DNA of 64,000 bases from Candidatus Saccharicenans sp. (GCA_024653215.1 JANLFU010000001.1:269492-333491), one strand, 5' to 3'; positions 37,221-60,587 are shown, counted from the first letter of the stretch. The notes: generated by a model not told the origin, from the letters alone. Numbers and translations: made by a program.

Positions 37221-38528
37221 ATGAATGAAGACAGCCACTTGATAAAAAAACCTGTATCCATCATCCAGGAAATCGAGAATCAACTGGAAGACTATCTCCG
37301 CCGGCAGAGGGAAGAAATTGAAAAATCCCTTGAAGAGAGAATTCAAAAGGAGAGAGAACTGGCCAGGCAGCAGCTGGCCGAGATTGAGCAGGCAGTTAAA
37401 AGGGAATGGCTGGCCCTGGAAGAGTATGGCCGGGTCTGGGAGCAATTTGAAGACAGAAGGCAGGAAATTCTTAGAAAAATCAAAGAGTGCCTGGAAAGAA
37501 TTGCTGACCGGCAGCAGGAAATTGAAAAACTCACCCGGGCCACTTCCGAGGATGTTCGGGCCATAAGTCAGCTGCACGAGGAACTGGAAGAGCTAAGGCG
37601 GCAGTCGCTGGAACAGGCCGAAGTTCTTAAGAAAGGACTGGAGGAGAAATTCGGACTGAGGGCTGAAATACCGAGGCCGGCAGAAGCGGAAAGGCCGGAA
37701 CTGGACCTGACGCCTGAGCTGGAAAAGCTACGTAAAGTCAAGGAACTTCTGCTGCTGGAAAGCGGGATAACCCAACCCCAGCCATCCAAAGAAGCGGAAG
37801 AGCAGGTCGGCCAGGCGGTGGAAACGGTTGAACCGCAACCAGCGGTGGAGCCGGTGACCGAGCCGGAGAAACCGGAGGAAGCCAGGCCCTTCACCGTAAC
37901 TGAAGAAGTAGCAGAGCCTACCCTGGAAGATAAACTGGCTGAAGAGATCAGGAAGACCATAGCCGGCCGGCTGGAATCCTTGCAGGCCGAGGGAACGGGA
38001 GAGGTGGCTTCTACCGCGCCCTCTGCCGAGAGCCTGGAGATGATCACCAGGAAAGACCTGGAAGAATTTTACCGGGAAGAGCCGGCCAACGGCTCCAGCC
38101 CGATCGGCTTTTACCAGAAGGGCAAGAAAAACATACTGGAAGCAGAAGAATTATTGACCAGGCTGAGGGAAGCGATCGAGGAGGCCCGTAAATTGAATTA
38201 CAAGATGGCCTTTGTCACCGCGGCCAAGGAGCAATTTTATCTGAAACAGGAAATCATCAGCCTGCAGGAGGGTATAAGGCGGTACCTGCTTCGGGTTGTC
38301 TTTCTGGCTAACAAGAAAAATTTCCGCTTTCCGGCCCTGACCCAGGATATCCTGAACCAGCAGGTGCTGGAAGAGCTTTCCGACCAGCTGGCGGTTCAGA
38401 ACTGGAGTTCGGCTGATGACCTGTCTCGCTTCGAGCAGAGAATAATCGACCTGACCGCTTCCTTTAAGGCCAGGACCACCCCGGCCTCAATTTACTACGG
38501 TGCCCTGAAAAAAGAACTGGAAGCCTGA
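37221..38528 (+). CDS. Long coiled-coil protein (E/R/Q/L-rich) with a C-terminal globular region; unknown function
   Basis: AAAGGAACGGGCA then ATG; heptad-rich N-terminal half, a Pro/Glu-rich linker, and a C-terminal roughly 150 aa of higher complexity. Confidence 0.5.
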   Translation: MNEDSHLIKKPVSIIQEIENQLEDYLRRQREEIEKSLEERIQKERELARQQLAEIEQAVKREWLALEEYGRVWEQFEDRRQEILRKIKECLERIADRQQEIEKLTRATSEDVRAISQLHEELEELRRQSLEQAEVLKKGLEEKFGLRAEIPRPAEAERPELDLTPELEKLRKVKELLLLESGITQPQPSKEAEEQVGQAVETVEPQPAVEPVTEPEKPEEARPFTVTEEVAEPTLEDKLAEEIRKTIAGRLESLQAEGTGEVASTAPSAESLEMITRKDLEEFYREEPANGSSPIGFYQKGKKNILEAEELLTRLREAIEEARKLNYKMAFVTAAKEQFYLKQEIISLQEGIRRYLLRVVFLANKKNFRFPALTQDILNQQVLEELSDQLAVQNWSSADDLSRFEQRIIDLTASFKARTTPASIYYGALKKELEA

Positions 38529-38552: not shown

Positions 38553-40571
38553 TCAATTAAACGTTTCCTTCTGAACCTCTTTGAAATAATTCTCCAGGAC
38601 CTGGAAATCGTCTCCGCTTAGTTCCTTAAATCTCAGGCCGGTGTAAAAAGTGCCGGCATCAGGGCTGGCCTTTTCCGAATAGACCACCTCTCCCTTCAGC
38701 GGGTGGGCTTTCTTGCCCAGAATCAGGATGACATCCATAGTCCGGGAGGCGGGCAGGGGTCTCTCCGAGAGAACCTTGGCTCCCCCCAGGCTGAGGTTGA
38801 TGGTCTTGCAGACCCGCAGCTGGCCGTCGTCCCGGTACATCATGATGGTGGACGTGTAATGCCGCTGGAAATGGCGTTTTTCGCGGAACAGCTTTTCCTG
38901 GTAGGTGACCGTCGGGCGGAGATGGTTTTCTCTTTCCCAGTCGCGGGAATAGGCCACCACCGTGTTCTTGGTGGCCGGCCTGGTTTGCGCCTCCGAGGGT
39001 GGCAGGCGCCAGGTTTCCTTTCCCTTGGCTTCGGCCAGGGCCAGGTCGCATTCGTGCACCAGGTGTTTCAGGTCTTCCCGGGTCAGCTGGCCATCGTCTT
39101 CTATTTTCTTGCGGGGGAAGACGGTGACCCCGAAGGACATGGTCAGGTTGTTCCGGGGCTGAAACTCTTCGTAGGGGAAATAGTGGTCTTCGATGTTCTT
39201 CCTGATTCTTTCGGTGAGCAGGCAGGCTTCTTCCAGGGTGGTGACCCCGCTCAGGAAGAACAGAAATTCTTCGCCCCCGTATCGGCAGATCAAATCATTT
39301 TCCCGGACCGATTGCTTCAGGATCGAGGCCAGTTCCTGCAACAGCCGGTTGCCGGCTTCATGGCCGTTGCGGTCGTTGTAATGCTTGAACCAGTCCACGT
39401 CGCCCATGACCATGGCGAAGGCCCCTTCTTCGATTTTTCTCTTGCTCATGGAGTTAACTTTCTGGAGGATGCGGTCGAAGAAGGGTTCGGCCCGCAGCAG
39501 CCCGGTCAGGGCGTCGTATTGAATCAGGTTGAGCTTGGTCATGGCGATGCCGATGTGTTCCGACAGCCCCCTCAGGATCTGCTGGTCTTCGCGGCTGAAG
39601 CCCTCCGGCAACGGGCTGTCCATAAAATGCTTGTTATAGAGTTCGATAACTCCGATGACCTGTTCTTCGTAGGTGATGGGCACGGCCAGGATGCTCTTCA
39701 AGGGGAACTTCAGGTTGTGCTGGTAGCGCAGCGAAAAGCGCTTGTCGTAGGTCAGGTCGCTGATGTTGACTTCCTGCCCGTGGCGGGCCACGGCCGCGGC
39801 AAAATCAGGGGCTTCCAGCCGGGCCACGTACTTGAAAGTTTCCGGGTGGGTGATGAAGGTATCGTCCCAGATGATGGGTTTCAGGTGCTTGCCCAGGGTC
39901 TCACTTTCTTCTATCAGGTAGATGGTCAGGCCCTGGGCCTGGAGCAGGTCTTTAATATCCGGGACCACACCCAGCAGGCTGCTGACGTCGTTGGCTGAAT
40001 AGATTTTGCGGACGATGTTTTCGATTTTCCATCTTTCCCGCTGGGACCAGACATAGCGGGCTTCCAGGGAAATTCTTCTTTCCAGCTCCCGCAGGTAATT
40101 CTCGTTGATTAACCTTTTAATTTCGGCAATTTCCTTGAAGACCTCCCGGGCGCTGGCCGAGTTCAGGGCCACGGTCTGCTGCAGCTGGGCCCACTCCCTT
40201 TTTATCCGGCTGTGATGGATGGCGATTTTAAGGATCTGGCCCAGGATCGGTTCCAAAGGTTGATTCTCTGTTTCCAGGACGTATTCCAGGTGATGGTGAG
40301 CCGGCCAGGTCAGCAGGCTCCGGTAGACTTCGGTTTCATCCCGTCCCAGGATGATAACCGAGCAATCCGGGCTGATGATGTCCTTCCAGCGGTCGTAATC
40401 GGCCGAACCGGAGTCGATAATGGCCGCCCAGCAATCATAGTTTTTTAAGAGCGGAGGGACCTCGTCAAAAGAATTGGCCACCACCGGCAGGTATTCTTTT
40501 TCGCAGAGCCGGACCACCTTCAGGGCCTGTTCGACACTGGAAACATAGACCAGAATATTTATCTGCGCCAT
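38553..40571 (-). CDS. Diguanylate cyclase with REC-like N-terminus, GAF domain, GGDEF domain (active, with I-site) and a C-terminal PilZ domain
   Basis: RENDLICRYGGEEF holds the I-site RxxD and an active GGEEF. The C-terminus has RHFQR (RxxxR) and NLSLGG (D/NxSxGG), which are PilZ signatures. Confidence 0.8.
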   Translation of the reverse strand: MAQINILVYVSSVEQALKVVRLCEKEYLPVVANSFDEVPPLLKNYDCWAAIIDSGSADYDRWKDIISPDCSVIILGRDETEVYRSLLTWPAHHHLEYVLETENQPLEPILGQILKIAIHHSRIKREWAQLQQTVALNSASAREVFKEIAEIKRLINENYLRELERRISLEARYVWSQRERWKIENIVRKIYSANDVSSLLGVVPDIKDLLQAQGLTIYLIEESETLGKHLKPIIWDDTFITHPETFKYVARLEAPDFAAAVARHGQEVNISDLTYDKRFSLRYQHNLKFPLKSILAVPITYEEQVIGVIELYNKHFMDSPLPEGFSREDQQILRGLSEHIGIAMTKLNLIQYDALTGLLRAEPFFDRILQKVNSMSKRKIEEGAFAMVMGDVDWFKHYNDRNGHEAGNRLLQELASILKQSVRENDLICRYGGEEFLFFLSGVTTLEEACLLTERIRKNIEDHYFPYEEFQPRNNLTMSFGVTVFPRKKIEDDGQLTREDLKHLVHECDLALAEAKGKETWRLPPSEAQTRPATKNTVVAYSRDWERENHLRPTVTYQEKLFREKRHFQRHYTSTIMMYRDDGQLRVCKTINLSLGGAKVLSERPLPASRTMDVILILGKKAHPLKGEVVYSEKASPDAGTFYTGLRFKELSGDDFQVLENYFKEVQKETFN

Positions 40572-44676: not shown

Positions 44677-47600
44677 TCAGGTTAATTCAGCTTTCTTTTT
44701 CCTGTACCTGGTCTTGACCTGTTCCACGAAAGCCTCCAGCCGGCTCCGGGTGCTGACCGTTTCGGTTTCGCCGTAAACCAGGGTGGGCAGGGGCAGGTTG
44801 CCAAAATCTTTTTTAATCCTCCGGGAGATGGCGGCCGAGGTGGTGCCCAGCATGCAGTTGAAGCAGATGACGTTGATGATGCCGTCGGCTCCCCGGCGGG
44901 CCAGGTCCACCATCCTGGCCACGTTCAGGAAAAGGCTCTGGTTGTTATTGTAATTAAGGTAGGCCAGGGTGGAGCGCAGGAGCTCTTCAAAGCGTGGTTC
45001 TTTAAGTTTCAGTTCCGAAAACTCCAGTTTCTTCCTGACCTGGGCCAGGTTGATCTCCCGGACCAGGTTCAGCCCGGCATACTTGACAGTTTCCAGCAGG
45101 TTACCCTCGGACAGCTTTTCGTAGAAGCCGCGGCTGAAGCTGAAGTCGATTTCATCCACCAGGAAGGGCGAGGGCCAGACTTCGCAGCCAAGTTCTTCCA
45201 GCTGTTCAAACAGCCGGTTGTTGGCAAATGAGTTCTGGCGGGTATAGATGTCCCCGGCGATTCCGATCAGTGGCCTTTCCTCCGGGCAAACCTTGATCTG
45301 ACTGAAGCTGGACCTGATTTTTTCCAGGGCCTCAGCCAGGCGGTCTGAGGCCAGTCCCTCTTCAATCAGCTTCAGGCCTTCCTGGAAAGCCCGGTTGACT
45401 TCACCCCGCTTGACCTCGTAAGGCCTGAGCTGGCAGGAGATTCTGGTCAGGTGGTCCACGGCCACCAGGCCCTGGTAAAGGGCCTTCAGGCCATCAAAGC
45501 CGATTAACTGCCAGAAATAATCAAGGGTCGGGGTCAGCAGCAGGACCCGCTGATTATCAAGTTCATGGAGCAGCTGGCGCATGGCCGGGCCGTACTGCTG
45601 CAACAAGCAGGAATATCTGGCCCCGGGGAAAAAGAAAATGAGTGGCTCGGCGGGTTTTTCGTCCAGGGTCAATTTCAGCAGGTCTCCCAGGAGGAAGGAA
45701 TAAGCGTGGCACTCCTTGCCCGAAGAATACTTTTCACCCAGTTCCAGGCTGCGCTCGTCGGGCGGGGGCAGGACCTCGGCCCGCAGGCCTGACTTTTTTA
45801 GAGCTCCGGCAAAGGCCCGGGCGTGGTCGGCAAAGTAGGGAAGGACGAACGGAATTTTTTTGACCCGTTCCACCGGCCAGGTTTCCGGGTTTTCTGCCTT
45901 TTTCAGCCTGGCGGCCGGGCGGTTTCCGGCGCGGTGCTGGCTGACCTCATCGTCGAAGGCTTCCAGCCTGGTAATCAGCCCGGCTTCTCCCCGGTGTTCG
46001 TCAAACTCGAGAAAGAGATGGGGGATGCTCTCCACCAGGCTCTTACACTGTTTCAGACAGAAGGCATCCGGCCCGCAGCCGTAAAATGAAAGAAAAACCG
46101 GATAGACGCCATGATGTTTTCTCGACCAGGCCGCGGCCTCAAGCATTTTCCTTGGATATCTCCAGGGCGGCACGGCCGAGCCTTCCAGGATTTCTCCGGC
46201 CAGCTCGACATCTTCCAGCTCCAGGTAATCCGCCGGGATGGCGATCAGTTTCAATTTTTCCAGGTGTGACCAGAAATTCAGGTTGACAAAGCTATCGTAG
46301 AGCAGGTAGGGACGCCCGGAAATCAACCAGACCGGTCTTTTGCTCTGAAAACTCCTTTTGAGCAACTGCTGGCCCTGCTCTTTAAGTTTCCGGTCGAATT
46401 CCATCTGGACCTGCCAGGCCTCGGTCCAGGCCCGGGCAATTGTCTCTTCGGGTTCCTTTAGAAGGCCGGCCAGGTTCTGCCAGCTCAATTTCTGGCTGTC
46501 TTCAACCGGTTCCAGGTAGACGGAGGTGGTCAGCAATTTTTCCCTGACTGTTTCGGGAATCATATGGGGCAGGTTCTCGGTATAGGGGCAAAAATAGAAA
46601 GATTCTCTTCGGTTCTGATGCCGGTCGACCAGGCTGGGCAGGAAGACCAGGTCCACCTCCGGGTCATCCTGCAGGAACTTAAGATGACCGATGGCCACTT
46701 TAACCGGCAGGCAGGTCTCGGCCGGCTGGAGTTTTATTCCAGCCTCCATGATTTCAGGACTGGTTTCGGGGGAAACCTTGACTCTGTAACCGAGCCGGGA
46801 AAAGAAGGCCAGCCAGAAAGGCAGAAATTCCAGGAAAACAGAGGCCCGGGGCAAACCGATGGTCGGGCCCTCAGCCGGTTTCTGAAGTTTAAAGTCGTCC
46901 AGCAGTTTTTTTCTGAAGGCCAGGGGGTTATGCCCATCGGCAGATGATAGCTCCAGGCGCGAGTCCGAAGTGTAGCGTTCGCAGATGTCGCCGAAATAGA
47001 CCCGTTCCTGGCCTGACTCCACCGCCACCACCTGGCAGCGGTTGGCACAATGTCGGCACTCGAAATGGGTCAGCTTGAAGGATTGAAAAAGCTGGTTTCT
47101 GATGTCGTCCAGGCCTAATGACTTCTTGCCCGATTTCCTGACCACCTCCCTAGCTTCCAGGGCCGCGCCGATGGCCCCGGAAATCCGGTGGTAGGGATGA
47201 ACCTTGATTTCCTTTCCCAGCAGGATGGAAAATGCTCTGACCACGGCCTGGTTGGAAGCCACCCCGCCCTGGAAAACTATGTTCTGACCGATGGGTCTTC
47301 TTTCCACCACCTTTTCCAGGTAATTCCGGGCAATAGAATAGGCCAGGCCGGCTACCAGGTCGGGCAGGGGCTGTCCCCGGGCGGCCTCGTTCAGAAGCTC
47401 TGATTCCATGAAGACGGTGCAGCGGCTGCCCAGGTCGGAAGGCTGCCGTGAAACCGAAGCCAGAACGGCAAAATCTTTCTCTACCCGGAAACCCATCTGG
47501 GCGGCCTGTTCTTCCAGAAAGGAACCGGTCCCGGCAGCACAGATCTTGTTCAAATTAAAATCGACCACCCGGCCGTTATCGACCTGAATGTACTTGGAGT

Positions 47601-48867
47601 CCTGACCTCCGATCTCAAAGATGGTATCGACTTCCGGAAAATAGTAACAGGCGCTGCGCATCTGGCAGGTTATCTCGTTCTTGATGAGGTCAGCCCGCAG
47701 CAACCGCCCGACCAGGTAGCGGCCGCTGCCGGTAGTACCTATGCCCAGGATTTCCAGCCCGGCCGGGAACCTGGAGAAAAGTTCCAGAAGTCCTTCCTTC
47801 AGCACCTCGAGTGGCCGGCCCCTGGTTGGCAGGTAGACTCCGCTCAGAACCTGGCTGGCTTCATCGACAATGACCAGATTGGTGCTGACCGAACCTATGT
47901 CAATTCCCAGGTATCCCCGGGCGGGGAAGTTTACCCTGTCCACGGGTTCGGAAGCCGGGCTGGCCCGGAGCTCCCCCAGCGGCTGCAGGCTGGAAAACTT
48001 GTGGTCAGCTGTCGGCCGGATTCTACCAGGAAGGTCTTCAGCGGTCAGGAAGCGTTTCTCCTCTTTCCTGGCGATGACCAGGCTGGCCGCTCCGATGGCC
48101 GGAAGATACGGTGATAAATCTGAATACAGCAGCCTTTCCGGACCGGCTTTTAAGACTTCCTGGAAGGCCCTGAGGACGCCGGCATTCTTGATGATGTTGC
48201 CGGCCAGGACCAGCGGCCAGGAAATATCCTTTCCCTTGAGCAGGGAAGAAGTCACCGATCTGACCAGGGCCAGGCAGACACCGTAAGCGATCTCTTCGGC
48301 CGGGGTGCCCTTCTGCTGGAGGTGAATCATGTCCGACTTGGCGAAGACACTGCAACGACCGGCAATGGTCGCTCCCTTCCTGGCCCGGGCGGCCAGGGAA
48401 GAAAAATCTTCTATCGACAGGCGCAATCGGTAGGCCTGCTGTTCCAGAAAGAGTCCAGTGCCGGCGGCGCATCTTTCATTGAGGGCGAAATCAACCACTT
48501 CCGGGAAGATGTCTCCGGCGGAGACTTTCCCCAGTTCCAGCCAGCGGGAACTTTCGGCCCCGATGTCAAAAACCGACCTGGCCCCGGGAAAAACCAGCCC
48601 GACCCCGGCGGCCAGGGCTGAAATCTCGTTGACCTTGAAAACCTCACCCGGGAAATCCAGACTGTTCCGGCCAGCCCCGGTGGCTGAGATTAGAAGTTTC
48701 TGGCCCGAGAGCGTAGATAGGTTTCGGCGGAGGATGGTCTCCAGGGCTGAGAAGAAATTGCCTTTGACCTCCTGGCTGTCCCTGAATATAAGCTGTCGCT
48801 GAGGGGAAAGAACCACCAGCTTTACCGATTGGACCCCGAGGTCAAGTCCCACGGCCAGGAAGCTCAT
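44677..48867 (-). CDS. 1396-aa fusion protein: two BadF/BcrA/HgdC-type (ASKHA-fold) ATPase 'activase' modules plus HgdB/BcrC-like dehydratase/reductase-type modules (CoA-substrate-specific enzyme activase family)
   Basis: N-terminal VGLDLGVQSVK and second GIDIGSVSTN ASKHA phosphate-1 motifs; ICAAGTGSFLEEQA-type cluster-bridging Cys; the remaining roughly 900 aa is Cys-containing alpha/beta. Confidence 0.7.
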   Translation of the reverse strand: MSFLAVGLDLGVQSVKLVVLSPQRQLIFRDSQEVKGNFFSALETILRRNLSTLSGQKLLISATGAGRNSLDFPGEVFKVNEISALAAGVGLVFPGARSVFDIGAESSRWLELGKVSAGDIFPEVVDFALNERCAAGTGLFLEQQAYRLRLSIEDFSSLAARARKGATIAGRCSVFAKSDMIHLQQKGTPAEEIAYGVCLALVRSVTSSLLKGKDISWPLVLAGNIIKNAGVLRAFQEVLKAGPERLLYSDLSPYLPAIGAASLVIARKEEKRFLTAEDLPGRIRPTADHKFSSLQPLGELRASPASEPVDRVNFPARGYLGIDIGSVSTNLVIVDEASQVLSGVYLPTRGRPLEVLKEGLLELFSRFPAGLEILGIGTTGSGRYLVGRLLRADLIKNEITCQMRSACYYFPEVDTIFEIGGQDSKYIQVDNGRVVDFNLNKICAAGTGSFLEEQAAQMGFRVEKDFAVLASVSRQPSDLGSRCTVFMESELLNEAARGQPLPDLVAGLAYSIARNYLEKVVERRPIGQNIVFQGGVASNQAVVRAFSILLGKEIKVHPYHRISGAIGAALEAREVVRKSGKKSLGLDDIRNQLFQSFKLTHFECRHCANRCQVVAVESGQERVYFGDICERYTSDSRLELSSADGHNPLAFRKKLLDDFKLQKPAEGPTIGLPRASVFLEFLPFWLAFFSRLGYRVKVSPETSPEIMEAGIKLQPAETCLPVKVAIGHLKFLQDDPEVDLVFLPSLVDRHQNRRESFYFCPYTENLPHMIPETVREKLLTTSVYLEPVEDSQKLSWQNLAGLLKEPEETIARAWTEAWQVQMEFDRKLKEQGQQLLKRSFQSKRPVWLISGRPYLLYDSFVNLNFWSHLEKLKLIAIPADYLELEDVELAGEILEGSAVPPWRYPRKMLEAAAWSRKHHGVYPVFLSFYGCGPDAFCLKQCKSLVESIPHLFLEFDEHRGEAGLITRLEAFDDEVSQHRAGNRPAARLKKAENPETWPVERVKKIPFVLPYFADHARAFAGALKKSGLRAEVLPPPDERSLELGEKYSSGKECHAYSFLLGDLLKLTLDEKPAEPLIFFFPGARYSCLLQQYGPAMRQLLHELDNQRVLLLTPTLDYFWQLIGFDGLKALYQGLVAVDHLTRISCQLRPYEVKRGEVNRAFQEGLKLIEEGLASDRLAEALEKIRSSFSQIKVCPEERPLIGIAGDIYTRQNSFANNRLFEQLEELGCEVWPSPFLVDEIDFSFSRGFYEKLSEGNLLETVKYAGLNLVREINLAQVRKKLEFSELKLKEPRFEELLRSTLAYLNYNNNQSLFLNVARMVDLARRGADGIINVICFNCMLGTTSAAISRRIKKDFGNLPLPTLVYGETETVSTRSRLEAFVEQVKTRYRKKKAELT

Positions 48868-48907
48868 GACCTTAACTCTCCAGCCGATAAAGTTTCACAT
48901 CTGACTA

Positions 48908-49864
48908 TCAGGAAAGGAGTTTTAGCAACCGGTACTCGGGTTCAAACTTTAATTTCTTTGGTTGAATGGCAATTTCCAGGGGCACCAGTTCGAGGCTATC
49001 GTTCTTAAGAGAAACGCACTTATCGGTCTCACCGGCCATCAGGTATTCGACGGCGGCGTTTCCCAGCCTGGCCGCCAGAATCCGGTCGAAGGCTGTCGGC
49101 CGGCCTCCCCGCTGGATATGACCGAGAACAGCTATCCTGGTTTCCAGACCGGTCAGGCCGGTGATGGCCGCGGCCACGTCCCGGGCTGTGGCCCGTCCTT
49201 CGGCCACGATCACAATCCAGCTGACCTTGCCGCGGGCGTTTCCGGCCTCTATTTCCCGGCAGATTTCTTCCAGCGAAAAGTCCTGTTCTGGCAGCAGGAC
49301 ATCCTCGCAACCGCCGGCCAGGGCCACCTTCATGGCCAGGTAACCGCAATCGCGGCCCATGACTTCCACCACGAAAATTCTTTCCAGGCTGGTGGCCGTG
49401 TCCCTGATTTTATCCAGGGCATCGAGGGCCACGTTGACGGCCGTGTCCGCTCCCAGGCAGAAATCAACGCCGTTGACGTCATTGTCGATGGTGGCCGGGA
49501 TTCCCATCACCCTGATTCCGTACTTGGTGGCCAGCAGGTGGGCCCCGCTCAGGGAACCGTTTCCACCTATGACCACCAGGCCGTCCAGTCCGTGCTCGCG
49601 GATGGTTTTAAGGGCCTGTTGCTGGCCGGCCGCGGTCAGGAACCTTTCCGAGCGGGCCGATTTCAGAATGGTTCCACCCAGGTTGATGATGCCGGAAACC
49701 GACCGCCGGTCCAGAACCGTCAGGTTGCCATCTATGAGTCCATCGTAACCCCGGATTATCCCCAGGACTTCAAGGTTGTGGCTGGCCGCGGTTCTGACCA
49801 GGGCCCTCAGGGCCGCATTCACCCCGGCGCAATCCCTGGTGATGACTCCAATTCTTCTCAACAT
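48908..49864 (-). CDS. pfkA: 6-phosphofructokinase (ATP- or PPi-dependent PFK family)
   Basis: GGDGS-type motif (VIGGNGSLSGA), MGR motif (VMGRDCG), 318 aa. Confidence 0.85.
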   Translation of the reverse strand: MLRRIGVITRDCAGVNAALRALVRTAASHNLEVLGIIRGYDGLIDGNLTVLDRRSVSGIINLGGTILKSARSERFLTAAGQQQALKTIREHGLDGLVVIGGNGSLSGAHLLATKYGIRVMGIPATIDNDVNGVDFCLGADTAVNVALDALDKIRDTATSLERIFVVEVMGRDCGYLAMKVALAGGCEDVLLPEQDFSLEEICREIEAGNARGKVSWIVIVAEGRATARDVAAAITGLTGLETRIAVLGHIQRGGRPTAFDRILAARLGNAAVEYLMAGETDKCVSLKNDSLELVPLEIAIQPKKLKFEPEYRLLKLLS

Positions 49865-49908
49865 TGTCTGAGCCCTGTCTTAGGTTTTGATATTATCAGA
49901 GTTAACCT

Positions 49909-50235
49909 TCAGTTTAAAGACCGCCCGCAGTATGGACAGAAACGGAAACCGGGCTCCAGATGACGGCCACAAGCCGGGCAGGTTCCAGTCGCCCTTGAAT
50001 CCTGGACTTCTGGCCGGTGGGGCCAGGTATCGTGCTCTGCAATTTCCAGCCCGCAGTTTTCACAGAGCTTGACAGGTCGTCCTTTTTTGACCGGGAAAAG
50101 CGGGATGAAAAAGAGGTTGAGGTAGTGGTCAACCCTGACCAGGTACAGGGTTGACAATCCGCAGCCAGGGCAAATTCCGGGGAGCTCATCCAGCTTCTTG
50201 ATTCGCGGGCTGATACCACCTATGAAGAAAAACAT
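49909..50235 (-). CDS. Double zinc-ribbon small protein
   Basis: CPGCG...CENCG...CPACG...CPYCG: four CxxC pairs in 108 aa. Confidence 0.45.
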   Translation of the reverse strand: MFFFIGGISPRIKKLDELPGICPGCGLSTLYLVRVDHYLNLFFIPLFPVKKGRPVKLCENCGLEIAEHDTWPHRPEVQDSRATGTCPACGRHLEPGFRFCPYCGRSLN

Positions 50236-50253: not shown

Positions 50254-51741
50254 TCAATTAAGTCCCTTCATGTATCGCATGTATTCTTCCACCCTATCAG
50301 GTGGCCGGGTAGAGAGGCTGACCAGAACAACCGCCAGGAAGGACAGGATGAAGGCCGGGACCCACTCGGCCACCAGGGCCTTGAGCGATGGAATAAGATA
50401 CCAGACAATTTCGGTGAGAGAGCCGACCAGGATGCCGGCGATAACTCCTTCCTTGGTGGTCTTTTCCCAGTAAAGCGACAGCAGGACGGCCGGTCCGAAG
50501 GCCGCTCCCAGTCCTCCCCAGGCAAACAGCACCAGGTAGAAGACCAGCTTGTTGGCATAGGCCGCAAACAACAGGGCCACCACGGCCACCAGCAGGGTAA
50601 AGACACGGCTGATCAATACCAGCTTCTTTTCCGGTATCTTTTTCTGGCTGGCGATAATCTTCTGGTAGGCATCCCGGACCACGGCCGAGGAGGCCACCAG
50701 CAACTGGGAAGAAGCGGTGGACATGATGGCCGCAAAGATGGCCGCTATGGTTAACCCGAAAAGAAAGGGATGAAGGTGCTGGGAACCGAGCAGGGGATAG
50801 ACGTTTTCCGGGTCTTTCCCGGGCAGGTTGGCCACGTCCTGGTACAGGGCTCTTCCGGCCAGCCCGATGAAGATGGCCCCCCAGGCCATCAGGACGTTCC
50901 AGACAGTTCCGATGAGGCCGGTCCTGTTCAATTTTTCTGGCTCTTCGATGCTCATGTATTTATTAAGGATATGGGGATTGCCGGGTGAGCCGAAACCGAT
51001 GCCGACAAAGCCCAGCCAGGCTCCGAAGCTGATGGAGAAAGTGTCGAGGTAGCCCGGGGAAATACCGCCGAGGACGGAGAACATCCGGCCCAGGCCACCG
51101 AAATGAATAATGGCGATGACCGGAAGTATCATCAGGGCAAAGATCATGAACATGGCCTGGAGGGTATCAGTCCAGCAGACGGCCATGAATCCGCCCAGGA
51201 CCGTGTAGAAAATCACGATGGCCGCGGTTATCAGGATTCCCTGGAGCGGGGTCAGGTTGAAACTGGCCGCCAGAGATTTGCCGCCGGCATTGAACTGGGC
51301 GGCCACATAAGCCGTCATGAAAATCAGGATTGGAATCAGGGCAAACAGCCGCAGCAGGTGCCGGTTGTCTTCAAACCTTGACTCCAGGTAATCGGGAATG
51401 GTGATGTCGCCCATCTTCCCGGTGAAATAGCGCAGGCGCTTCCCCGGAAAGATGAACATGAACAGCTCGACCAGGATGTATCCGACCACGGCCCAGACGG
51501 CCGAGACCCCTCGGGTGAAGGCCATCCCGGAAACGCCGATGAGCAGCCAGGCCGAACGGCCGGAAGTCACCGCGGCCAGGGCCACCACAAAGGACTTCAT
51601 TTTTCTTCCGCCCAGGAAAAATTCTCCTATGCCGCGGGAAGAAAACCTGGCGGTGATGATTCCGACCGAAACCATCATTACCACATATAAAATAAATGCG
51701 GCCAGGGCCCAGGGATTGGTATGAATGCTCAGAGTGTTCAT
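50254..51741 (-). CDS. Sodium:solute symporter (SSS) family transporter
   Basis: 13 or more TM helices with SSS-family architecture. The ORF opens at 51912, but an ATG at 51741 (MNTLSIHTNPWALAAFILY) follows GGAGGAAAGAA and starts directly with TM1. Confidence 0.8.
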   Translation of the reverse strand: MNTLSIHTNPWALAAFILYVVMMVSVGIITARFSSRGIGEFFLGGRKMKSFVVALAAVTSGRSAWLLIGVSGMAFTRGVSAVWAVVGYILVELFMFIFPGKRLRYFTGKMGDITIPDYLESRFEDNRHLLRLFALIPILIFMTAYVAAQFNAGGKSLAASFNLTPLQGILITAAIVIFYTVLGGFMAVCWTDTLQAMFMIFALMILPVIAIIHFGGLGRMFSVLGGISPGYLDTFSISFGAWLGFVGIGFGSPGNPHILNKYMSIEEPEKLNRTGLIGTVWNVLMAWGAIFIGLAGRALYQDVANLPGKDPENVYPLLGSQHLHPFLFGLTIAAIFAAIMSTASSQLLVASSAVVRDAYQKIIASQKKIPEKKLVLISRVFTLLVAVVALLFAAYANKLVFYLVLFAWGGLGAAFGPAVLLSLYWEKTTKEGVIAGILVGSLTEIVWYLIPSLKALVAEWVPAFILSFLAVVLVSLSTRPPDRVEEYMRYMKGLN

Positions 51742-51830
51742 TTCTTTCCTCCCTTCCTGAGGCCCAGAACCAGGGCCAGGACCAGGATCAGGCCGGGCAT
51801 GATGAACAGGCCGAAGTAAGTTGACAGCAT
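51738..51830 (-). CDS. Unannotated 30-aa hydrophobic micro-protein translationally coupled to the SSS transporter; candidate small accessory subunit
   Basis: Manual translation gives MLSTYFGLFIMPGLILVLALVLGLRKGGKK. Strong RBS (GGAGGTAGCC then ATG); its TGA overlaps the transporter ATG (ATGA at 51738-51741). Confidence 0.3.
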   Translation of the reverse strand: MLSTYFGLFIMPGLILVLALVLGLRKGGKK

Positions 51831-51963
51831 GGCTACCTCCTTCAGATGGCATAAAATACCACAGCCCGGCCCGGTCTTCAATTTTCTTTATTCCCTTTAT
51901 TCTCTGGAACAATTCTTCCGGTTGTGCTATGTATAAAGTCTCAAATCCCTCATGGAGGCTCCG

Positions 51964-54102
51964 ATGACCAAGGGCAAAATGGCAATCATGGTCTTATTTA
52001 CCTGTGCTATGATTATTCTGGTGGCGGCTTCGGCCTGCCGGAAGGCGGAGGAAAAAATTATCTATCCCCAGACCAGGAAAGTGGATCAAGTTGATGATTA
52101 TTTCGGCACCAGGGTGGCCGACCCCTACCGCTGGCTGGAAGACGACAATTCCGAAGAAACCAGGAAATGGGTGGAAGAACAGAACCGGGTAACCTTCGCT
52201 TACCTGGAAAAAATTCCTTACCGTGAAAAAATTCGCGAACGTCTTAGAGACATATACAACTATCCACGCATGGGACAGCCCATCCGGGCCGGTGAGTACT
52301 ATTTCTTCTACAAGAACGATGGCCTGCAGAACCAGTCTGTAATTTACATCCAGAAGGGCCTGGACGGGCAGCCTGAAGTCTTCATCGACCCCAACCAGCT
52401 TTCGCCGGATGGAACGGTCAGGATTGGCCTGGCCGGTTTTTCTACCGATTTCCGGTACGTGGCCATCAACCGCTCCGAGGCTGGCTCTGATTGGTCGGAG
52501 CTGAGGGTGATGGAGATCGCCACCCGGAAGGAGCTTCCGGACATAATCCGGTGGGTTAAGTTTTCTGGCGCGGCCTGGTACAAAGATGGCTTTTTCTACA
52601 GCGGCTATGATCAGCCCGCCCCGGGCCAGGAACTGAGTGCTCGCAACGAGTTCCAGAAGGTTTTTTATCATAAGCTGGGAGATCCGCAGGAGAAAGATAT
52701 CCTCATCTACCAGGACCCGAAAAATCCGCTGCGATACTTCAACCTGGGAGTGACCGAGGACCAGAAGTATGCCATTCTTGATATCTCGGCCGGGACCTCC
52801 GGCAATGAACTCTACTGGAAGGACCTGACCGCCAAAAAATCTGAGTTCCAGCTCCTCATCCCCGGTTTCGACCACGACAGCGAGGTCATAGATAACCTGG
52901 GCGATAAGTTCCTGGTCAGGACCAACCTAGGGGCCGCAAATTTCCGCCTGGTCCTGGTCGACCCCAGGAACCCGTCCCCGGACAGATGGCAGGAAATCCT
53001 GCCCGAAAAACCTGAAGTCCTGGTCTCGGCCAGCATGGCTGGCGGCTATCTGTTCGCTTCCTACCTCCAGGATGCCCGGACCAGGGTTTACCAGCACCGG
53101 CCCAGCGGCGAGCTCATCAAGGAAGTGGAACTGCCGACCATCGGCACGGCCTCGGGCTTTGGCGGCTGGCGGGACGACAGGGTCATTTTTTACACCTTTC
53201 AATCCTTCAATTATCCGCCAACCATCTATAAGTATGACCTGGCCAGCGGCCAGTCTGAGGTCTTTGTCCGGCAGCAGGTAAAATTCAACCCGGAAGATTT
53301 CGAGGTCAAGCAGGTCTTCTATAACAGCAAGGATGGAACCAGGGTGCCGATGTTTATCGTCCACAAAAGGGGACTGGTTCTGGATGGCAAGAATCCGACC
53401 TGGCTGACGGCTTACGGAGGCTTTAATGTCAGCCTGACCCCGGGTTTTAACCCGACGATCTTGATCATCCTGGAAAACGGTGGAGTCTATGCCCAGCCCA
53501 ACCTGAGGGGCGGAGGCGAGTACGGAGAAAAATGGCACCGGGCCGGGATGCTGGAAAACAAGCAGAATGTCTTTGACGACTTCATAGCGGCCGCCGAGTA
53601 TCTGATCAGCGAAAAGTATACCTCGCCCAAATACCTGGCTATCTCCGGCGCTTCCAACGGCGGCTTGCTGGTGGGCGCGGTCATGACCCAGAGGCCAGAG
53701 CTTTTCGGCGTGGCCTTCCCGGCGGTGGGAGTCATGGATATGCTGCGCTACCACAAGTTTACCGTGGGCTGGGGCTGGGTGGTGGAGTACGGTTCTAGCG
53801 ACAGGGAAGATCAGTTCCGTTACCTTTTTAAGTACTCGCCGCTGCACAATATCCGGGATGGGGTCTGCTATCCGGCCACCATGGTGACCACGGCCGACCA
53901 CGACGACCGGGTGGTGCCGGCCCATTCCTTCAAGTTTGCGGCCACCCTGCAGGAAAAGCAGGCCTGCAACCGTCCGGTGCTGATCCGGATTGAAACCCGC
54001 TCCGGGCACGGCTCCAGCAACGTCACCAAGGCCATAGATGAGCTGACGGACAAGTATTCTTTCATGTTCCGGGTAATGGGCCTGAAGCCGATTTACCGTT
54101 GA
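51964..54102 (+). CDS. Prolyl oligopeptidase (S9A), secreted or lipoprotein
   Basis: Beta-propeller N-terminus plus an alpha/beta-hydrolase C-terminus with catalytic Ser in GGSNGGLL. The ORF opens at 51952; an ATG at 51964 follows GGAGG with a 5-nt spacer. Signal peptide ends AASAC. Confidence 0.88.
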   Translation: MTKGKMAIMVLFTCAMIILVAASACRKAEEKIIYPQTRKVDQVDDYFGTRVADPYRWLEDDNSEETRKWVEEQNRVTFAYLEKIPYREKIRERLRDIYNYPRMGQPIRAGEYYFFYKNDGLQNQSVIYIQKGLDGQPEVFIDPNQLSPDGTVRIGLAGFSTDFRYVAINRSEAGSDWSELRVMEIATRKELPDIIRWVKFSGAAWYKDGFFYSGYDQPAPGQELSARNEFQKVFYHKLGDPQEKDILIYQDPKNPLRYFNLGVTEDQKYAILDISAGTSGNELYWKDLTAKKSEFQLLIPGFDHDSEVIDNLGDKFLVRTNLGAANFRLVLVDPRNPSPDRWQEILPEKPEVLVSASMAGGYLFASYLQDARTRVYQHRPSGELIKEVELPTIGTASGFGGWRDDRVIFYTFQSFNYPPTIYKYDLASGQSEVFVRQQVKFNPEDFEVKQVFYNSKDGTRVPMFIVHKRGLVLDGKNPTWLTAYGGFNVSLTPGFNPTILIILENGGVYAQPNLRGGGEYGEKWHRAGMLENKQNVFDDFIAAAEYLISEKYTSPKYLAISGASNGGLLVGAVMTQRPELFGVAFPAVGVMDMLRYHKFTVGWGWVVEYGSSDREDQFRYLFKYSPLHNIRDGVCYPATMVTTADHDDRVVPAHSFKFAATLQEKQACNRPVLIRIETRSGHGSSNVTKAIDELTDKYSFMFRVMGLKPIYR

Positions 54103-54369: not shown

Positions 54370-55980
54370 TCAGTCTTTGATCTCATGCTGTTCCAGCAGG
54401 GCTCTCCATTTCTCCATCAGGTCCCGGTTGATGTCCAGAGGGGGAGTGGCCTCCGGTGGCAGGAAGGATTTATATGAATGGGTCTTCATATGTTCTTCAA
54501 ATTCGGCCTTAATCTTATTTAATGTCTCTGGACCCGTCAGCAGGTCGAGAGCGGTCAGGGCCATGGCCTTAGCCCCGGCGTTCAATCCTTTCCAGGCAAT
54601 TGAGCCGTAGACCGAAGCCACGGTTGACCAGTGATGGCCGATGGCCCCGGGGACGTTGGACGGGAAACGAACCGTGGCCGTTGGGGCCACCAGGGTCACC
54701 TCGCCCACGTCGGTGGAGCCGCCGCCGATGAATGAATCTCTCGGCTCACGAAGCGGGTTGACCTCCCTTTTCAAGCCTTTTTCTTCCGACTTAAGTTCCT
54801 GCTGCAGGGCCTGGGCAAACTCTTCTTCTTCCTTGTCCCAGACCGGCATCCCGGCCAGCTCGATGTTCTTCTGAAGGAGCTCGGCCAGGGTCCTGTTTCC
54901 GTGGAACTGGTGGGTGGCGCTCAGCACCCTGACTTCGGCCAGTTCGGTCCCGGTGGCCAGGGCCGCGGCTCTGGCGCAGTTCGCCACCCGTTCAAACATC
55001 GCTTCCAGCTCGTCGTCGGTATTCCGGACGTAATACCAGACCGAAGCTTTGTCGGGGACCACGTTGGGAGCCTGTCCGCCTTCAAGGATGATGTAATGGA
55101 GTCGATGGGCGGGGTTCAGGTGTTCCCGGAGGTAATTGGTGGCTACGTTCATCAGTTCCACCGCGTCCAGGGCGCTGCGTCCGGCCCATGGCGCCCCGGC
55201 GCTATGGGCCGTTTTTCCCCTGAAGGTAAAGATGGCGGAAATCACCGCGTTACCCGAGACGCCGTAAGCCGTGCCGAAATCGCTGGAGCTGTGGTTGTCA
55301 ATGACGGCATCCACGTCTCTGAACAGACCGGCCCGGACCATGTATGGCCGGCTGGCCAGAATTTCTTCGGCCGGCGAGCCAAAGACCTTGATCGTTCCCT
55401 TGATTCCAAATTTTTCCATGGCCTTCCTGGTGGCTATGGCCGCAGCCACCGCCGCCGTGCCCATGGTATTGTGGCCGCAGCCGTGACCCGGGGCGCCTTC
55501 TATGACCGGGTCCTTCCTGGGCACCCGTCCTTTCTGGGAAAGCATGGGCAGGGCGTCAAATTCGCCCAGGAATCCGATGACCGGCTTTCCCTCCCCGTAG
55601 CTGGCCACGAAGCAGGTCGGCATGCCGGCCAGCCCCCGCTCCACCTTGAACCCGGCCTGCTCCAGGGTATCGGCCAGAAGTTTTGAAGACTTGAACTCCT
55701 GCAGGCCCAGCTCGGCATAGGACCAGATGCGGTCGGAGATGCGGCCAAAAAATTCCAGTTGCTCTTTCTCCCCCAGCCAGTCCAGAATGAATCTCTTTTC
55801 CTTTCCGATTTTTACTGTTGCTTTTTTCTTTGCGGCCTGGGTGTTTTCCGGTCCGGCGGCAAGCCCTGGCCGGTAGCAAAGCAGGGCGGCCAGCAGCAGC
55901 AGGGGCAGCAGTCTCCAGAATCTGGTTTTGGGACTTTGGCCGGGACTGACGATTTCTTCAGGCAGCCCGGAGTGATTCAT
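54370..55980 (-). CDS. Secreted M20-family metallopeptidase/amidohydrolase (AbgB-like M20D)
   Basis: GHGCGHN metal-binding motif; signal peptide after a roughly 20-aa n-region. Confidence 0.78.
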   Translation of the reverse strand: MNHSGLPEEIVSPGQSPKTRFWRLLPLLLLAALLCYRPGLAAGPENTQAAKKKATVKIGKEKRFILDWLGEKEQLEFFGRISDRIWSYAELGLQEFKSSKLLADTLEQAGFKVERGLAGMPTCFVASYGEGKPVIGFLGEFDALPMLSQKGRVPRKDPVIEGAPGHGCGHNTMGTAAVAAAIATRKAMEKFGIKGTIKVFGSPAEEILASRPYMVRAGLFRDVDAVIDNHSSSDFGTAYGVSGNAVISAIFTFRGKTAHSAGAPWAGRSALDAVELMNVATNYLREHLNPAHRLHYIILEGGQAPNVVPDKASVWYYVRNTDDELEAMFERVANCARAAALATGTELAEVRVLSATHQFHGNRTLAELLQKNIELAGMPVWDKEEEEFAQALQQELKSEEKGLKREVNPLREPRDSFIGGGSTDVGEVTLVAPTATVRFPSNVPGAIGHHWSTVASVYGSIAWKGLNAGAKAMALTALDLLTGPETLNKIKAEFEEHMKTHSYKSFLPPEATPPLDINRDLMEKWRALLEQHEIKD

Positions 55981-55981
55981 G

Positions 55982-57331
55982 TCATTTCTCCTTTTCCCTT
56001 TTTCTGAATTTTTCCAGCAACTCCGTATAGCGGTTGCTCAGGTCCACCTCCCGGCCTTCAATGAATACCTTTTCAATCCGGGTGCCGAGTTCCAGCAGGT
56101 CGCCGTCGGCCAGGACGATGTTGGCCTGTTTCCCGGCCTCCAGGCTGCCCATGAGCTTATCCACTCCGAATATTTCAGCCGGGTAGATGGTTACTGCTTT
56201 CAGGGCTTCCAGCCGGTCAAGTCCGAAGGCCGCCGCCTTGGCCGCATGGTAGGGAAGGTCCTTGGCCGCGCTGGAGCTGGAGGAGGAGAAGGCGATTTTC
56301 ACCCCGGCCTGGTTGAGCAGCACCGGGTTCATAAACAGTGAGTCATAGCCGTCTTCCCACACCGGCGGCTGGTCATAGAGCGAACCGATGAGGCAGGGAA
56401 TGCCAGCTTTCTTGATTTCCCCGGCCACCTTGTAACCCTGGTGGACCCCATAGAATATGGCCTTAATCTTTTCTTCCTGAACGAAGCGTATGGTCTGCAG
56501 GATGTCCTTGTCGGCCTGGACTGAAAAGATAACCGGCAGTTCTCCCCTGACCACCGGCAGCAGGCAGTGGCTGGTTTCGTCGAAATCGGGCCTGGGTAGC
56601 AGAAGGTTTTTCGCAGCCTGTTCTCTTCTTATCTCGTACATTCTGGCCCGGTGAAACAATTCTTTAAGCTCGGCCAGGGCCCGGTCGGTGGAGACGGCTG
56701 CCTGCTGGGTGCCCATGCCCATGAATCCTCGCCTTCCACCCCTTATGCCCGGAAGCTCAACCACCAGGGCCAGGCTTTCCTTGATTACCATTTCCCGGTT
56801 GGTCCAGCCGTCGAGCTTGACCAGGGTGCTCTGCCCGGCTATCAAGCCGCCGGAGGGGGCCACCACCGCGGCCACGATTCCGTTGGCCCGGGCGATTGGT
56901 ATGTGCATGGAGTCGTACTTCAGGGCTTCGATGGCCTTGACCTGGGGGTTGATGCGCCCGGTTTCCCGGTTATCAACCGTGGCCGAAACGCCGCTTATCT
57001 CAACCAGCCCCAGGGAAGAATAACCGTCGATCATTCCCGGGTAAGCGGTCAGGCCCCGGGCCTCTATGATTCTGGCTCCGGCTGGAATTTCCAGGTTGGC
57101 TCCAAGGGCCTTTATTTTCCCGTTCTCAACCAGGATGGTTCCCGAGGGAATTTCCTGGCCGACGACCGGGACAATACGGACGTTGACGATGGCCTGCAAA
57201 GCTGACCCAGGACCGCTATTTTCTGTGTCTGTCCGGGCTTCTGCCGGCGACAACAGCCAGGTGGTTAAAAGTAAAATTAACAGGAATGACAGCGGCAGAT
57301 ATTTCTTAAAGCAAATTATTCTGCTGAACAT
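55982..57331 (-). CDS. Secreted amidohydrolase-superfamily protein (prolidase-like subfamily), lacking the HxH motif
   Basis: Signal peptide. The beta-strand-1 motif reads PGMIDGYSSLGL at about 57010-57045 (expected PGxIDxHxH). The C-terminal GSLEAGKQANIVL block is conserved among the three paralogues. Confidence 0.75.
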   Translation of the reverse strand: MFSRIICFKKYLPLSFLLILLLTTWLLSPAEARTDTENSGPGSALQAIVNVRIVPVVGQEIPSGTILVENGKIKALGANLEIPAGARIIEARGLTAYPGMIDGYSSLGLVEISGVSATVDNRETGRINPQVKAIEALKYDSMHIPIARANGIVAAVVAPSGGLIAGQSTLVKLDGWTNREMVIKESLALVVELPGIRGGRRGFMGMGTQQAAVSTDRALAELKELFHRARMYEIRREQAAKNLLLPRPDFDETSHCLLPVVRGELPVIFSVQADKDILQTIRFVQEEKIKAIFYGVHQGYKVAGEIKKAGIPCLIGSLYDQPPVWEDGYDSLFMNPVLLNQAGVKIAFSSSSSSAAKDLPYHAAKAAAFGLDRLEALKAVTIYPAEIFGVDKLMGSLEAGKQANIVLADGDLLELGTRIEKVFIEGREVDLSNRYTELLEKFRKREKEK

Positions 57332-58638
57332 CAGTTTCCTCCTTTCCTGGCCGCCTCTTCTCTTTCCTTGATTACCTGCTGCCGGTCGAAGTAAACCTCG
57401 CCTTCAATTATGGTCAGGTCGCAGCGGGTATAGGCGCTCATCGGGTGTTCGTTGAACAGGGCCAGGTCGGCCTGTTTCCCCACCTCGATGCTTCCCACCA
57501 GGCGATCAACCCCCAGCTGGCGGGCGGCGTTGATGGTTACCATCTTCAGGGCTTCATCCGGGGTCAGGCCGTACTTGACCGCCTTGCCGGCTTCATTGAA
57601 CAGGCGGCGCACCCTTTCCGAGCTGTCGGAGTTGATGGAGACCAGGACCCCTCTTTGAGTGCAATAGGAAGCATTGTAGGCAATTCCCTCGGCCGCCTCC
57701 ATCTTGTAGGCCCAGCTATCTATGAACACCGAGATTCCAACCCCGGCGGCCAGCAGCTCATCGGTGATCTTGTAGGCTTCCCAGGCATGTTCGAAAGCTC
57801 CTATCTTGAACCCGAATTCTTTAGCCAGGTTAAGAAATTCCACCATCTCGGTAGCCACGTAGGCATGGCAGCGGGCATAAAGCTTGCCGCGCAGCAGGTC
57901 AGCCAGGGTTTCCAGCCTGAGGTCCTTTTTGGGAGGCAGGAGGTTTTCGGGCGGGTTTTTGGAATTCCTTAATTTTTCATACCTGTCCCACTCGGCCAGG
58001 TAATCTCTGGCCCGCAGCAGTTCCCTCCTGATGATGGCGTTGGCTCCCATCCTGGTGGCCGGGTAACGCTGCGGACGGCCGGGGAGAAGAGTGCGGTTGG
58101 ACTGCTTGACGTTTTCACCGAGGGCGAACTTCAGGGTGGGGTAGGCTTCCCTGACCACCAGCTTTTCCGAGGGCTGACCCCATTTCATCTTCAGCACGAC
58201 GTTGACCCCGCCGATGACGTTGGCGCTGCCGTGCATGGTGTGAACCATGGTCACTCCGCCGCTCAGGGCAGTGAAAATGGCCGGGTCGTCGGGATTGATG
58301 ACCTCGGCCATGTTGACTTCGGGGGTGATGGCCTCGGTACCCTCGTTGGTGCCGGACAGGGCCAGGTGGGTATGGGTGTCGATGATGCCTGGAATCAGGT
58401 ATTTGCCCTGGGCCTCGATGATTCTGGTGCCCGGGGGTGCGGTCAGGTTCCGACCAATCTGTTTAATGATTCCATTAGTTACCAGGACATCTCCGCCGGT
58501 GATGGGTGGGCCGGTGACCGGAAGAATGGTGGCGTTCTTGATCAGAAGGTTGCCGGCGGCCAGCAGCCAGCTGGCCGAGCCGGCCAGCATTATAACCAGA
58601 AGCAGTATGAAAATTGGGAGACGAGTCAGATTTTTCAT
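57331..58638 (-). CDS. Secreted amidohydrolase-superfamily protein (prolidase-like), canonical
   Basis: PGIIDTHTHLAL HxH motif; C-terminal GSIEVGKQADLAL; ATGA overlaps with both neighbours. Confidence 0.8.
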   Translation of the reverse strand: MKNLTRLPIFILLLVIMLAGSASWLLAAGNLLIKNATILPVTGPPITGGDVLVTNGIIKQIGRNLTAPPGTRIIEAQGKYLIPGIIDTHTHLALSGTNEGTEAITPEVNMAEVINPDDPAIFTALSGGVTMVHTMHGSANVIGGVNVVLKMKWGQPSEKLVVREAYPTLKFALGENVKQSNRTLLPGRPQRYPATRMGANAIIRRELLRARDYLAEWDRYEKLRNSKNPPENLLPPKKDLRLETLADLLRGKLYARCHAYVATEMVEFLNLAKEFGFKIGAFEHAWEAYKITDELLAAGVGISVFIDSWAYKMEAAEGIAYNASYCTQRGVLVSINSDSSERVRRLFNEAGKAVKYGLTPDEALKMVTINAARQLGVDRLVGSIEVGKQADLALFNEHPMSAYTRCDLTIIEGEVYFDRQQVIKEREEAARKGGN

Positions 58639-60533: not shown

Positions 60534-60587
60534 TAATGACTAAACTGTGGGTTGGAAACATTTCATAATATATATAAGGAGTATGAG

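Follow-up and report, generated by a model that had tools for sequence, protein, structure and literature searches.

The PlsA/PlsR/Ger family of ether-lipid synthases is a branch of the benzoyl-CoA reductase (BCR)/2-hydroxyacyl-CoA dehydratase (HAD) superfamily. The plsA-plsR pair of Clostridium perfringens encodes an anaerobic plasmalogen synthase of this BCR/HAD type, according to the account of Jackson et al. 2021 cited in PMC9702350. E. faecalis, L. cremoris and B. longum subsp. suis have single-gene versions of plsA (4248-4920 bp) that give rise to plasmalogens in E. coli. Identity to C. perfringens PlsA/PlsR is 41-55% for the validated PlsA orthologues, and the structure predicted for the single-gene PlsA follows the order Act1-Act2-Red1-Red2, with [4Fe-4S] clusters (PMC12838417). 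Thermotoga maritima and Desulfatibacillum alkenivorans have a "modified PlsA" named glycerol ester reductase (Ger; 159 kDa in the latter organism; PMC11150832). Expressed in E. coli, it yields 1-O-alkyl glycerols and, later, also diethers, under anaerobic conditions only (PMC13159169, PMC11150832). The BBD core of these proteins is kept in all alkyl-ether producers examined, and Ger homologues have been reported previously in acidobacterial metagenome-assembled genomes (MAGs) of anoxic systems (PMC13159169). Here we analyze a 64,000-nucleotide stretch of DNA from Candidatus Saccharicenans sp. (GCA_024653215.1 JANLFU010000001.1:269492-333491; the window), in which one gene encodes a protein of 1396 amino acids (156.3 kDa). 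Judged by its sequence, this protein is probably (about 70%) a single-polypeptide ether-lipid synthase of the PlsA/PlsR/Ger family, namely an oxygen-sensitive, ATP-dependent glycerolipid ester reductase. The initial annotation of the gene had held that its substrate could not be inferred and that large fusions of this type were essentially uncharacterized. Neither statement stands. The layout of BB-D-D in a polypeptide of about 1400 residues is that of PlsA/PlsR and Ger, which act on membrane glycerolipid esters and not on CoA thioesters, and both were validated by heterologous expression (PMC9702350, PMC12838417, PMC13159169, PMC11150832).

The C. perfringens reference was recovered by scanning a metagenome collection with the published cloning primer for the operon. 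The scan returned 11 contigs, among them one (L109:6694-10892) with plsA (975 amino acids) and plsR (420 amino acids) between the two published primers. The 1396-residue protein aligned collinearly with concatenated PlsA+PlsR over residues 3-1339 (E 6.7e-122, 25% identity). PlsA alone (E 1.5e-108, 26.5% identity) spanned both activase modules, the linker and the first reductase/dehydratase module, while PlsR alone (E 6e-14, 23.7% identity) matched residues 1006-1339 with its residues 25-364. In Pfam, BcrAD_BadFG (PF01869; E 5.6e-72) and DUF2229 (PF09989; E 2e-53) each match two stretches of the protein; PlsA and PlsR give the same pattern, the DUF2229 match of PlsR being likewise weak. The cysteines were compared in an alignment of 282 sequences, in which 280 full-length relatives (28-95% identity to the protein) were set beside the protein itself and C. 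perfringens PlsA+PlsR. Fourteen putative cluster-ligand cysteines are common with PlsA/PlsR and are invariant in 281-282 of the 282 sequences. It is because the alignment is collinear, the Pfam pattern the same and the 14 cysteines in correspondence that we place the protein in the PlsA/PlsR/Ger family.

The open reading frame (ORF) is intact. An in-frame stop lies nine codons ahead of its ATG start codon, the stretch between them offers no other start, and a ribosome-binding site precedes the ATG (Table 1). More than 100 full-length homologues (1390-1430 amino acids) were found, many of them carrying Aminicenantes labels and the closest, at 95% identity, coming from "Candidatus Saccharicenans subterraneus". 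Since full-length homologues of 1395-1400 amino acids reach this identity, the ORF is a genuine gene rather than a reading frame open by chance, in agreement with the initial annotation. No transmembrane segment is predicted in the protein, which has no hydrophobic stretch of transmembrane character, and the window holds no second copy of the gene.

Table 1. Features of the fusion gene and its upstream neighbors, in positions of the window
Feature	Position	Strand	Remarks
ORF of the putative PlsA/PlsR/Ger-family fused glycerolipid ester reductase	44677..48867	-	complete, 1396 amino acids + stop
GGAGAG ribosome-binding site (Shine-Dalgarno)	48876..48881	-	read from sequence; 8 nt before ATG
Activase module 1, BcrAD_BadFG/ASKHA ATPase	48067..48855	-	residues 5-267; Cys133, Cys172
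Activase module 2, BcrAD_BadFG/ASKHA ATPase	47152..47910	-	residues 320-572; Cys443, Cys483; phosphate-1 loop GSVSTN
Linker Cys4 motif C604-x2-C607-x3-C611-x17-C629	46981..47058	-	invariant in 281/282 family members
Reductase/dehydratase module 1	45898..46863	-	residues 669-990; invariant Cys719, Cys760, Cys931
Reductase/dehydratase module 2	44680..45870	-	residues 1000-1396; weak DUF2229, E 1.2e-5
PFK	48908-49864	-	upstream of the 1396-residue gene, same strand, gap 40 nt
Zn_ribbon_15 protein	49909-50235	-	neighbor beyond PFK
SSF symporter	50254-51912	-	552 amino acids from TTG start

The two activase modules of the HgdC/BcrAD type, as proposed initially, are borne out by the two PF01869 stretches and by the separate alignments of the modules to activases in the PDB. 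Each module aligned over its full length with HgdC (1hux), HadI (4eht), MbdQ/MbdP (9gai, the activators of 3-methylbenzoyl-CoA reductase) and DCCP-R (7yyl). They share the motifs N-x-x-C-A-A-G-T-G and C-(S/T)-V-F, present as NERC133AAGTG and GRC172SVFA in module 1 and as NKIC443AAGTG and SRC483TVFM in module 2, and both pairs align with NDKCAAGTG and (S)TCTVFA of MbdQ and HgdC. The equivalent cysteine pair of HgdC (1HUX) bridges a [4Fe-4S] cluster between two protomers. With two cysteines in each activase module, one polypeptide would therefore provide all four ligands of such a cluster. Within the phosphate-1 loop of module 2, Asn330 (codon 47878-47880) replaces the lysine of HgdC, of MbdQ and of both C. 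perfringens PlsA modules. The family has asparagine at this position in 182 of its 282 sequences, aspartate in 57 and lysine in 38; the corresponding lysine of module 1 is present in 239. This distribution suggests that the two ATP sites are functionally asymmetric in most of the PlsA/PlsR/Ger-type family.

The Cys4 motif of the linker is a probable additional Fe-S (or metal) site. Beyond it, reductase/dehydratase module 1 carries DUF2229 (PF09989) on residues 669-881 (E 2e-47) and is the counterpart of the C-terminal third of C. perfringens PlsA; module 2 is the counterpart of PlsR. Three cysteines in each module are invariant across the family, those of module 2 being Cys1053, Cys1087 and Cys1338. 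Module 2 has six conserved cysteines within its own clade, with Cys1145, Cys1228 and Cys1335 in addition. The similarity between the two modules is faint (hhalign E 0.0025, probability 12%), and at these values an internal duplication as their common origin was not adopted.

NCBIfam matches the protein to TIGR00241, "acyl-CoA dehydratase activase" (E 7e-90), a label that also appears in the source annotations and that would fit the reading given initially, in which one polypeptide would be a complete 2-hydroxyacyl-CoA dehydratase or benzoyl-CoA reductase with a CoA thioester as its substrate. The catalytic part speaks otherwise. Searches against the PDB, by phmmer and with a 61-sequence profile, matched activases alone and no HAD or BCR catalytic subunit, and Pfam HGD-D (PF06050) did not match the 1396-residue protein at E <= 10, short segments included. 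Four relatives (P0319, P0321, P0312 and P0339), about 45% identical to neighboring members of the clade, give sub-threshold HGD-D scores of 23.6-27.9 bits against a cut-off of 28.4. They map to the final ~55 residues of one or the other reductase module, the position at the end of module 1 being the equivalent of residues 913-967, and they agree with the small "H" segments that the literature gives for Ger. The fold of module 2 is the further point in favor of a CoA-thioester enzyme. We know of no solved structure for the PlsA/PlsR/Ger family, and the comparison was made with an AlphaFold2 model of residues 586-1396 (predicted local distance difference test, pLDDT, 85.7). In this model, module 2 has the fold of a BcrC/HgdB-type (gamma/beta) subunit with two alpha/beta domains. 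It matches BzdN/MbdN and HadC/HadB and is nearer to the BzdN/HadC type than to the BzdO/HadB type. Thus, of the Pfam families anticipated by the initial annotation, BcrAD_BadFG and DUF2229 were found and HGD-D was not; likewise, the HgdB/BcrC likeness proposed for the C-terminal two-thirds, whose failure was to have counted against the annotation, has no basis in sequence (PDB search, profile and HGD-D) and holds by fold for module 2. No CoA-transferase, acyl-CoA dehydrogenase or aromatic-degradation gene is present among the 30 larger ORFs of the window scanned against Pfam (smaller ORFs were not scanned), as the initial annotation had stated, and seven related contigs have no CoA-transferase/ligase, downstream acyl-CoA or ring-degradation gene either. 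With a glycerolipid ester as substrate, this absence of CoA-handling neighbors is expected. All characterized fused BB-D-D enzymes act on glycerolipid esters, and we hold a CoA-thioester enzyme to be very improbable.

The same AlphaFold2 model raises a second alternative, as DCCP (7yyl, 6eno) gave its only Foldseek matches at probability 1.0: an ATP-driven reductase akin to DCCP, with a complex Fe-S cluster and a small-molecule or other non-lipid substrate. Against this, just three cysteines per module are invariant across the family, and the six-cysteine spacing of module 2 within the clade departs from that of BzdN, in which Cys36/73/100/263/293/327 hold an [8Fe-9S] cluster (PMC11971306). 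Furthermore, DCCPs are homodimers of ~420-residue subunits with a separate reductase and not BB-D-D fusions, and the collinear homology to PlsA+PlsR extends over the whole protein. We consider a DCCP-like reductase unlikely.

Several observations weigh against the assignment as an ether-lipid synthase. The 25% identity to the C. perfringens reference compares with 41-55% among the validated PlsA orthologues and also lies under the >30% screening cut-off of PMC13274423. The 280 full-length relatives are all 22-30% identical to C. perfringens PlsA/PlsR; since none exceeds 30%, the clade is separate and deep, with no characterized member identified. The missing HGD-D match belongs here as well, as does the lack of an adjacent lipid-biosynthesis gene or of a conserved neighborhood that would indicate a lipid role. 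To our knowledge, the Aminicenantes are uncultured and without lipid data. Finally, the D. alkenivorans paralogue Ger2, though close to Ger, gave no ether lipid in E. coli (PMC11150832), hence homology is no guarantee of activity. The protein might thus be an auxiliary member, inactive on its own as Ger2 appears to be, or one that reduces another lipid ester (sn-2, membrane-spanning tetraester, or wax/acyl ester). The low identity to PlsA/PlsR favors such a possibility, as does the fact that product and specificity are at present indistinguishable by sequence, the alkyl product of Ger and the alkenyl product of PlsA included (PMC13274423, PMC11868695). Yet the gene is the sole copy in the window, and full length and every cluster cysteine are kept across Aminicenantes and neighboring phyla, which argues for an active enzyme. 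We assign this alternative a low likelihood.

The named members of the clade are MAGs of Aminicenantes, Thermoguttaceae (Planctomycetota), Elusimicrobia, Polyangia (Myxococcota), Sericytochromatia and "Deltaproteobacteria". By the catalytic part, the family counts 3359 representatives at 50% identity with E <= 1e-3, of which 549 have E <= 1e-30, and most are of ~1400 residues. Renewed queries with P0086 (a "Terriglobales" MAG) and P0133 (a "Deltaproteobacteria" MAG), aimed at a reference that is cultured or validated (E. aggregans, H. foetida, D. alkenivorans or T. maritima), returned only MAG proteins; the cluster members of ten representatives bore no cultured names. The E. faecalis plsA forward primer ATGGTTATGAGAGCAGGGAT had 0 matches in the genome contigs, and the reverse primer had 105 AT-rich chance matches, none encoding a homologue. 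We offer, tentatively and as a reading clearly less likely than not, that this deep subfamily of Aminicenantes, Planctomycetota, Elusimicrobia, Myxococcota and Desulfobacterota-like MAGs, ~25% identical to the Bacillota PlsA/PlsR, may differ from the validated enzymes in product or regiochemistry, for example by forming saturated sn-1/sn-2 alkyl ethers.

For the PlsA/PlsR/Ger-type synthase that we favor, the most likely substrate, we infer, is the sn-1 acyl ester of a membrane glycerophospholipid. The two activase modules would form an intramolecular pseudo-dimer holding one [4Fe-4S] cluster on Cys133/172 and Cys443/483, and reduced ferredoxin or flavodoxin would load this bridging cluster. 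ATP binding and hydrolysis would lower the potential of the cluster and dock it onto the reductase modules. A step of this kind has been observed in DCCP-R:DCCP, and one has been proposed in BzdPQ:BzdNO (PMC9351452, PMC11971306). The electrons would then pass, perhaps through the Cys4 linker site, to three-cysteine Fe-S clusters in reductase modules 1 and 2. The catalytic center of HadB and BzdO is a three-cysteine [4Fe-4S] cluster with an open iron site (PMC11971306), and one such site of the fusion would bind the ester carbonyl. Module 1 might be the better candidate for the catalytic site, because module 2 is closer to the BzdN/HadC type than to the BzdO/HadB type. Two one-electron reductions and protonation of the sn-1 ester carbonyl would give a hemiacetal-like intermediate. 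Its dehydration would yield a vinyl ether (1-alk-1'-enyl, plasmalogen), and a further two-electron reduction would yield the saturated 1-O-alkyl ether. This scheme of reduction and dehydration is that of Jackson et al., as summarized in PMC8788747. We lean slightly to an alkyl over an alkenyl ether as the product, because some Planctomycetes and sulfate reducers are reported to contain alkyl glycerol ethers (PMC13159169), and these phyla are also in the clade.

The homologue of an Aminicenantes relative (L120, 47% identical) is followed directly by two flavodoxin-like genes, FMN_red and Flavodoxin_2 (L120:12191-13485). The first of these overlaps the stop codon of the homologue, and both are missing from the 64-kb window. 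The pair may be dedicated electron donors, in keeping with the need for a low-potential donor. In the same contig and in a second one, a conserved protein of ~100 amino acids is encoded just upstream of the homologue, after a divergent ferritin gene (L120:7677-7970 and L121:7668-7973). It has a lipoprotein-like signal and a C-terminal hydrophobic, lysine-rich tail; no Pfam family matches it, and it is unrelated to the zinc-ribbon protein of the window. Beside the homologue of a Thermoguttaceae member (Planctomycetota) lies a divergent gene for a 554-residue B12-binding/radical SAM protein (L122:4895-6559, minus strand). This protein has no PDB match, and its NCBIfam matches (BchE, HpnJ and "lipid biosynthesis B12-binding/radical SAM") are far below threshold. 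It could not be assigned as Mss/Tes and may be a lipid-modifying partner or there by coincidence. The window holds no radical SAM gene of the Mss/Tes type, ThiC being its sole radical SAM match.

The PFK and zinc-ribbon neighbors named in the initial annotation lie where it placed them (Table 1). The SSF symporter follows, which homologous contigs call at 495 amino acids, so that its translation probably begins further downstream than the first possible start codon; on the other side, a DUF1614 gene is convergent with the 1396-residue gene. The order SSF - zinc ribbon - PFK - fusion gene - DUF1614 is kept at 80% and 64% protein identity and is absent at 46-47% and in other phyla, whose homologues lie beside unrelated genes. 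For this reason the adjacency to pfkA is a lineage-specific gene order and no functional clue, and PFK, the zinc-ribbon protein, SSF and DUF1614 were rejected as functional partners. The fusion gene may be co-transcribed with pfkA; the promoter and terminator scan gave nothing beyond the shuffled expectation and no terminator-like site in the 40-nt gap to PFK. On the opposite strand, a 333-residue ORF (48962-49963, plus strand) overlaps PFK almost entirely and is a shadow ORF, not a gene.

Other genes of the window, such as PFOR, HypF and HdrD-like, suit an anaerobe, and the rest of the window resembles chromosomal DNA of an anaerobe that ferments peptides. Three tandem amidohydrolase-family genes (55982-57331, 57331-58638 and 58635-60014, all minus strand) have ends that overlap or abut. 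An M20 peptidase-like gene (54370-55980, minus strand) comes next, and a prolyl oligopeptidase (51952-54102, plus strand) lies nearby. Together, 54370-60014 and the prolyl oligopeptidase look like a cluster for peptide or amide catabolism, and the part closest to the fusion gene is also kept in contigs L117-L119. A gene at 38553-40571 (minus strand) encodes 672 amino acids with GAF, GGDEF and a C-terminal PilZ, a layout that would join a diguanylate cyclase to a cyclic-di-GMP receptor domain of its own; it is kept in related contigs. Two ORFs of 435 amino acids have no Pfam match (13590-14897 and 37221-38528, both plus strand). The second is kept beside the GGDEF gene in the related contigs, where it has 445-446 amino acids and again no Pfam family. 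The GC content dips to 0.489 at 60001-62000, compared to 0.53-0.59 elsewhere in the window, and the dip covers two short ORFs (60552-61043 and 61079-61339) before an HdrD-like CCG/4Fe-4S protein (61500-63551).

The annotation of the gene would accordingly be corrected from "acyl-CoA dehydratase activase" to ether-lipid synthase. Database labels of this kind, including "CoA-substrate-specific enzyme activase", invite a wrong reading in terms of amino-acid or aromatic fermentation. The function of the family is already known, and the 1396-residue protein adds a member from uncultured Aminicenantes, not an unknown machine. If the assignment is true, Candidatus Saccharicenans and other Aminicenantes, which abound in sediments, aquifers and the subsurface as uncultured anaerobes, are predicted to have ether-linked membrane lipids. 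This bears on a question of geochemistry, namely which anaerobes make the non-isoprenoid alkyl glycerol ethers and brGDGTs (branched glycerol dialkyl glycerol tetraethers) that serve as palaeoclimate proxies in anoxic settings. Should the deep subfamily differ in its product or regiochemistry, the class Aminicenantia (strictly anaerobic Acidobacteriota) would be unrecognized producers of non-isoprenoid ether lipids in anoxic sediments and possibly also a source of brGDGT-type biomarkers. The result extends, and does not overturn, the surveys that flagged Ger homologues in anaerobic acidobacterial MAGs. The 14-cysteine pattern and the predicted BzdN/HadC-type fold of module 2 are concrete targets for mutagenesis and spectroscopy.

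How the protein compares with the described systems can be set out as follows. Class I benzoyl-CoA reductases (BzdNOPQ and MbdONQP; 8s02, 9g87, 9gai) consist of four separate subunits, act on an aroyl-CoA and have a CoA-binding four-helix bundle. The six cysteines of the [8Fe-9S] cluster in BzdN are spaced differently from those of module 2, and the catalytic parts are without detectable sequence similarity. In HADs (HadBC+HadI and HgdAB+HgdC; 3o3m, 4eht, 1hux), the activator is a separate homodimer that is used catalytically, and the substrate is a CoA thioester. The HAD reaction involves no net reduction; the formation of an ether, by contrast, uses up electrons. DCCP/DCCP-R (6eno, 7yyl) is a protein with a motif of 6-7 cysteines for which no physiological substrate is known; it is unfused and lacks the Cys4 linker of the 1396-residue protein. 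Ger (T. maritima Tmari_0479/AGL49404 and D. alkenivorans SHJ90043), by its published description, is likewise a single polypeptide of ~1400 residues with a BBD core, of nearly the same mass (159 vs 156 kDa) and from an anaerobic host, as here; its small HGD-D segments (BBDHDDH) are undetected in the 1396-residue protein and appear below threshold in relatives only. PlsA/PlsR of C. perfringens (CPE1194-1195, Q8XL48/Q8XL47) has the same order of Act1, Act2, Cys4 linker, DUF2229 module and second module, with the same 14 cysteines and the same Pfam pattern, and the single-gene PlsA has the same fused length (4248-4920 bp, compared to 4191 bp here). Unlike PlsA/PlsR, the protein has asparagine instead of lysine at the phosphate-1 loop position of its second activase module, and its clade conserves the additional Cys1145, 1228 and 1335. 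PlsA/PlsR occur in Bacillota or Actinomycetota, whereas the clade of the 1396-residue protein is found in MAGs of Aminicenantes, Planctomycetota, Elusimicrobia, Myxococcota and "Deltaproteobacteria".

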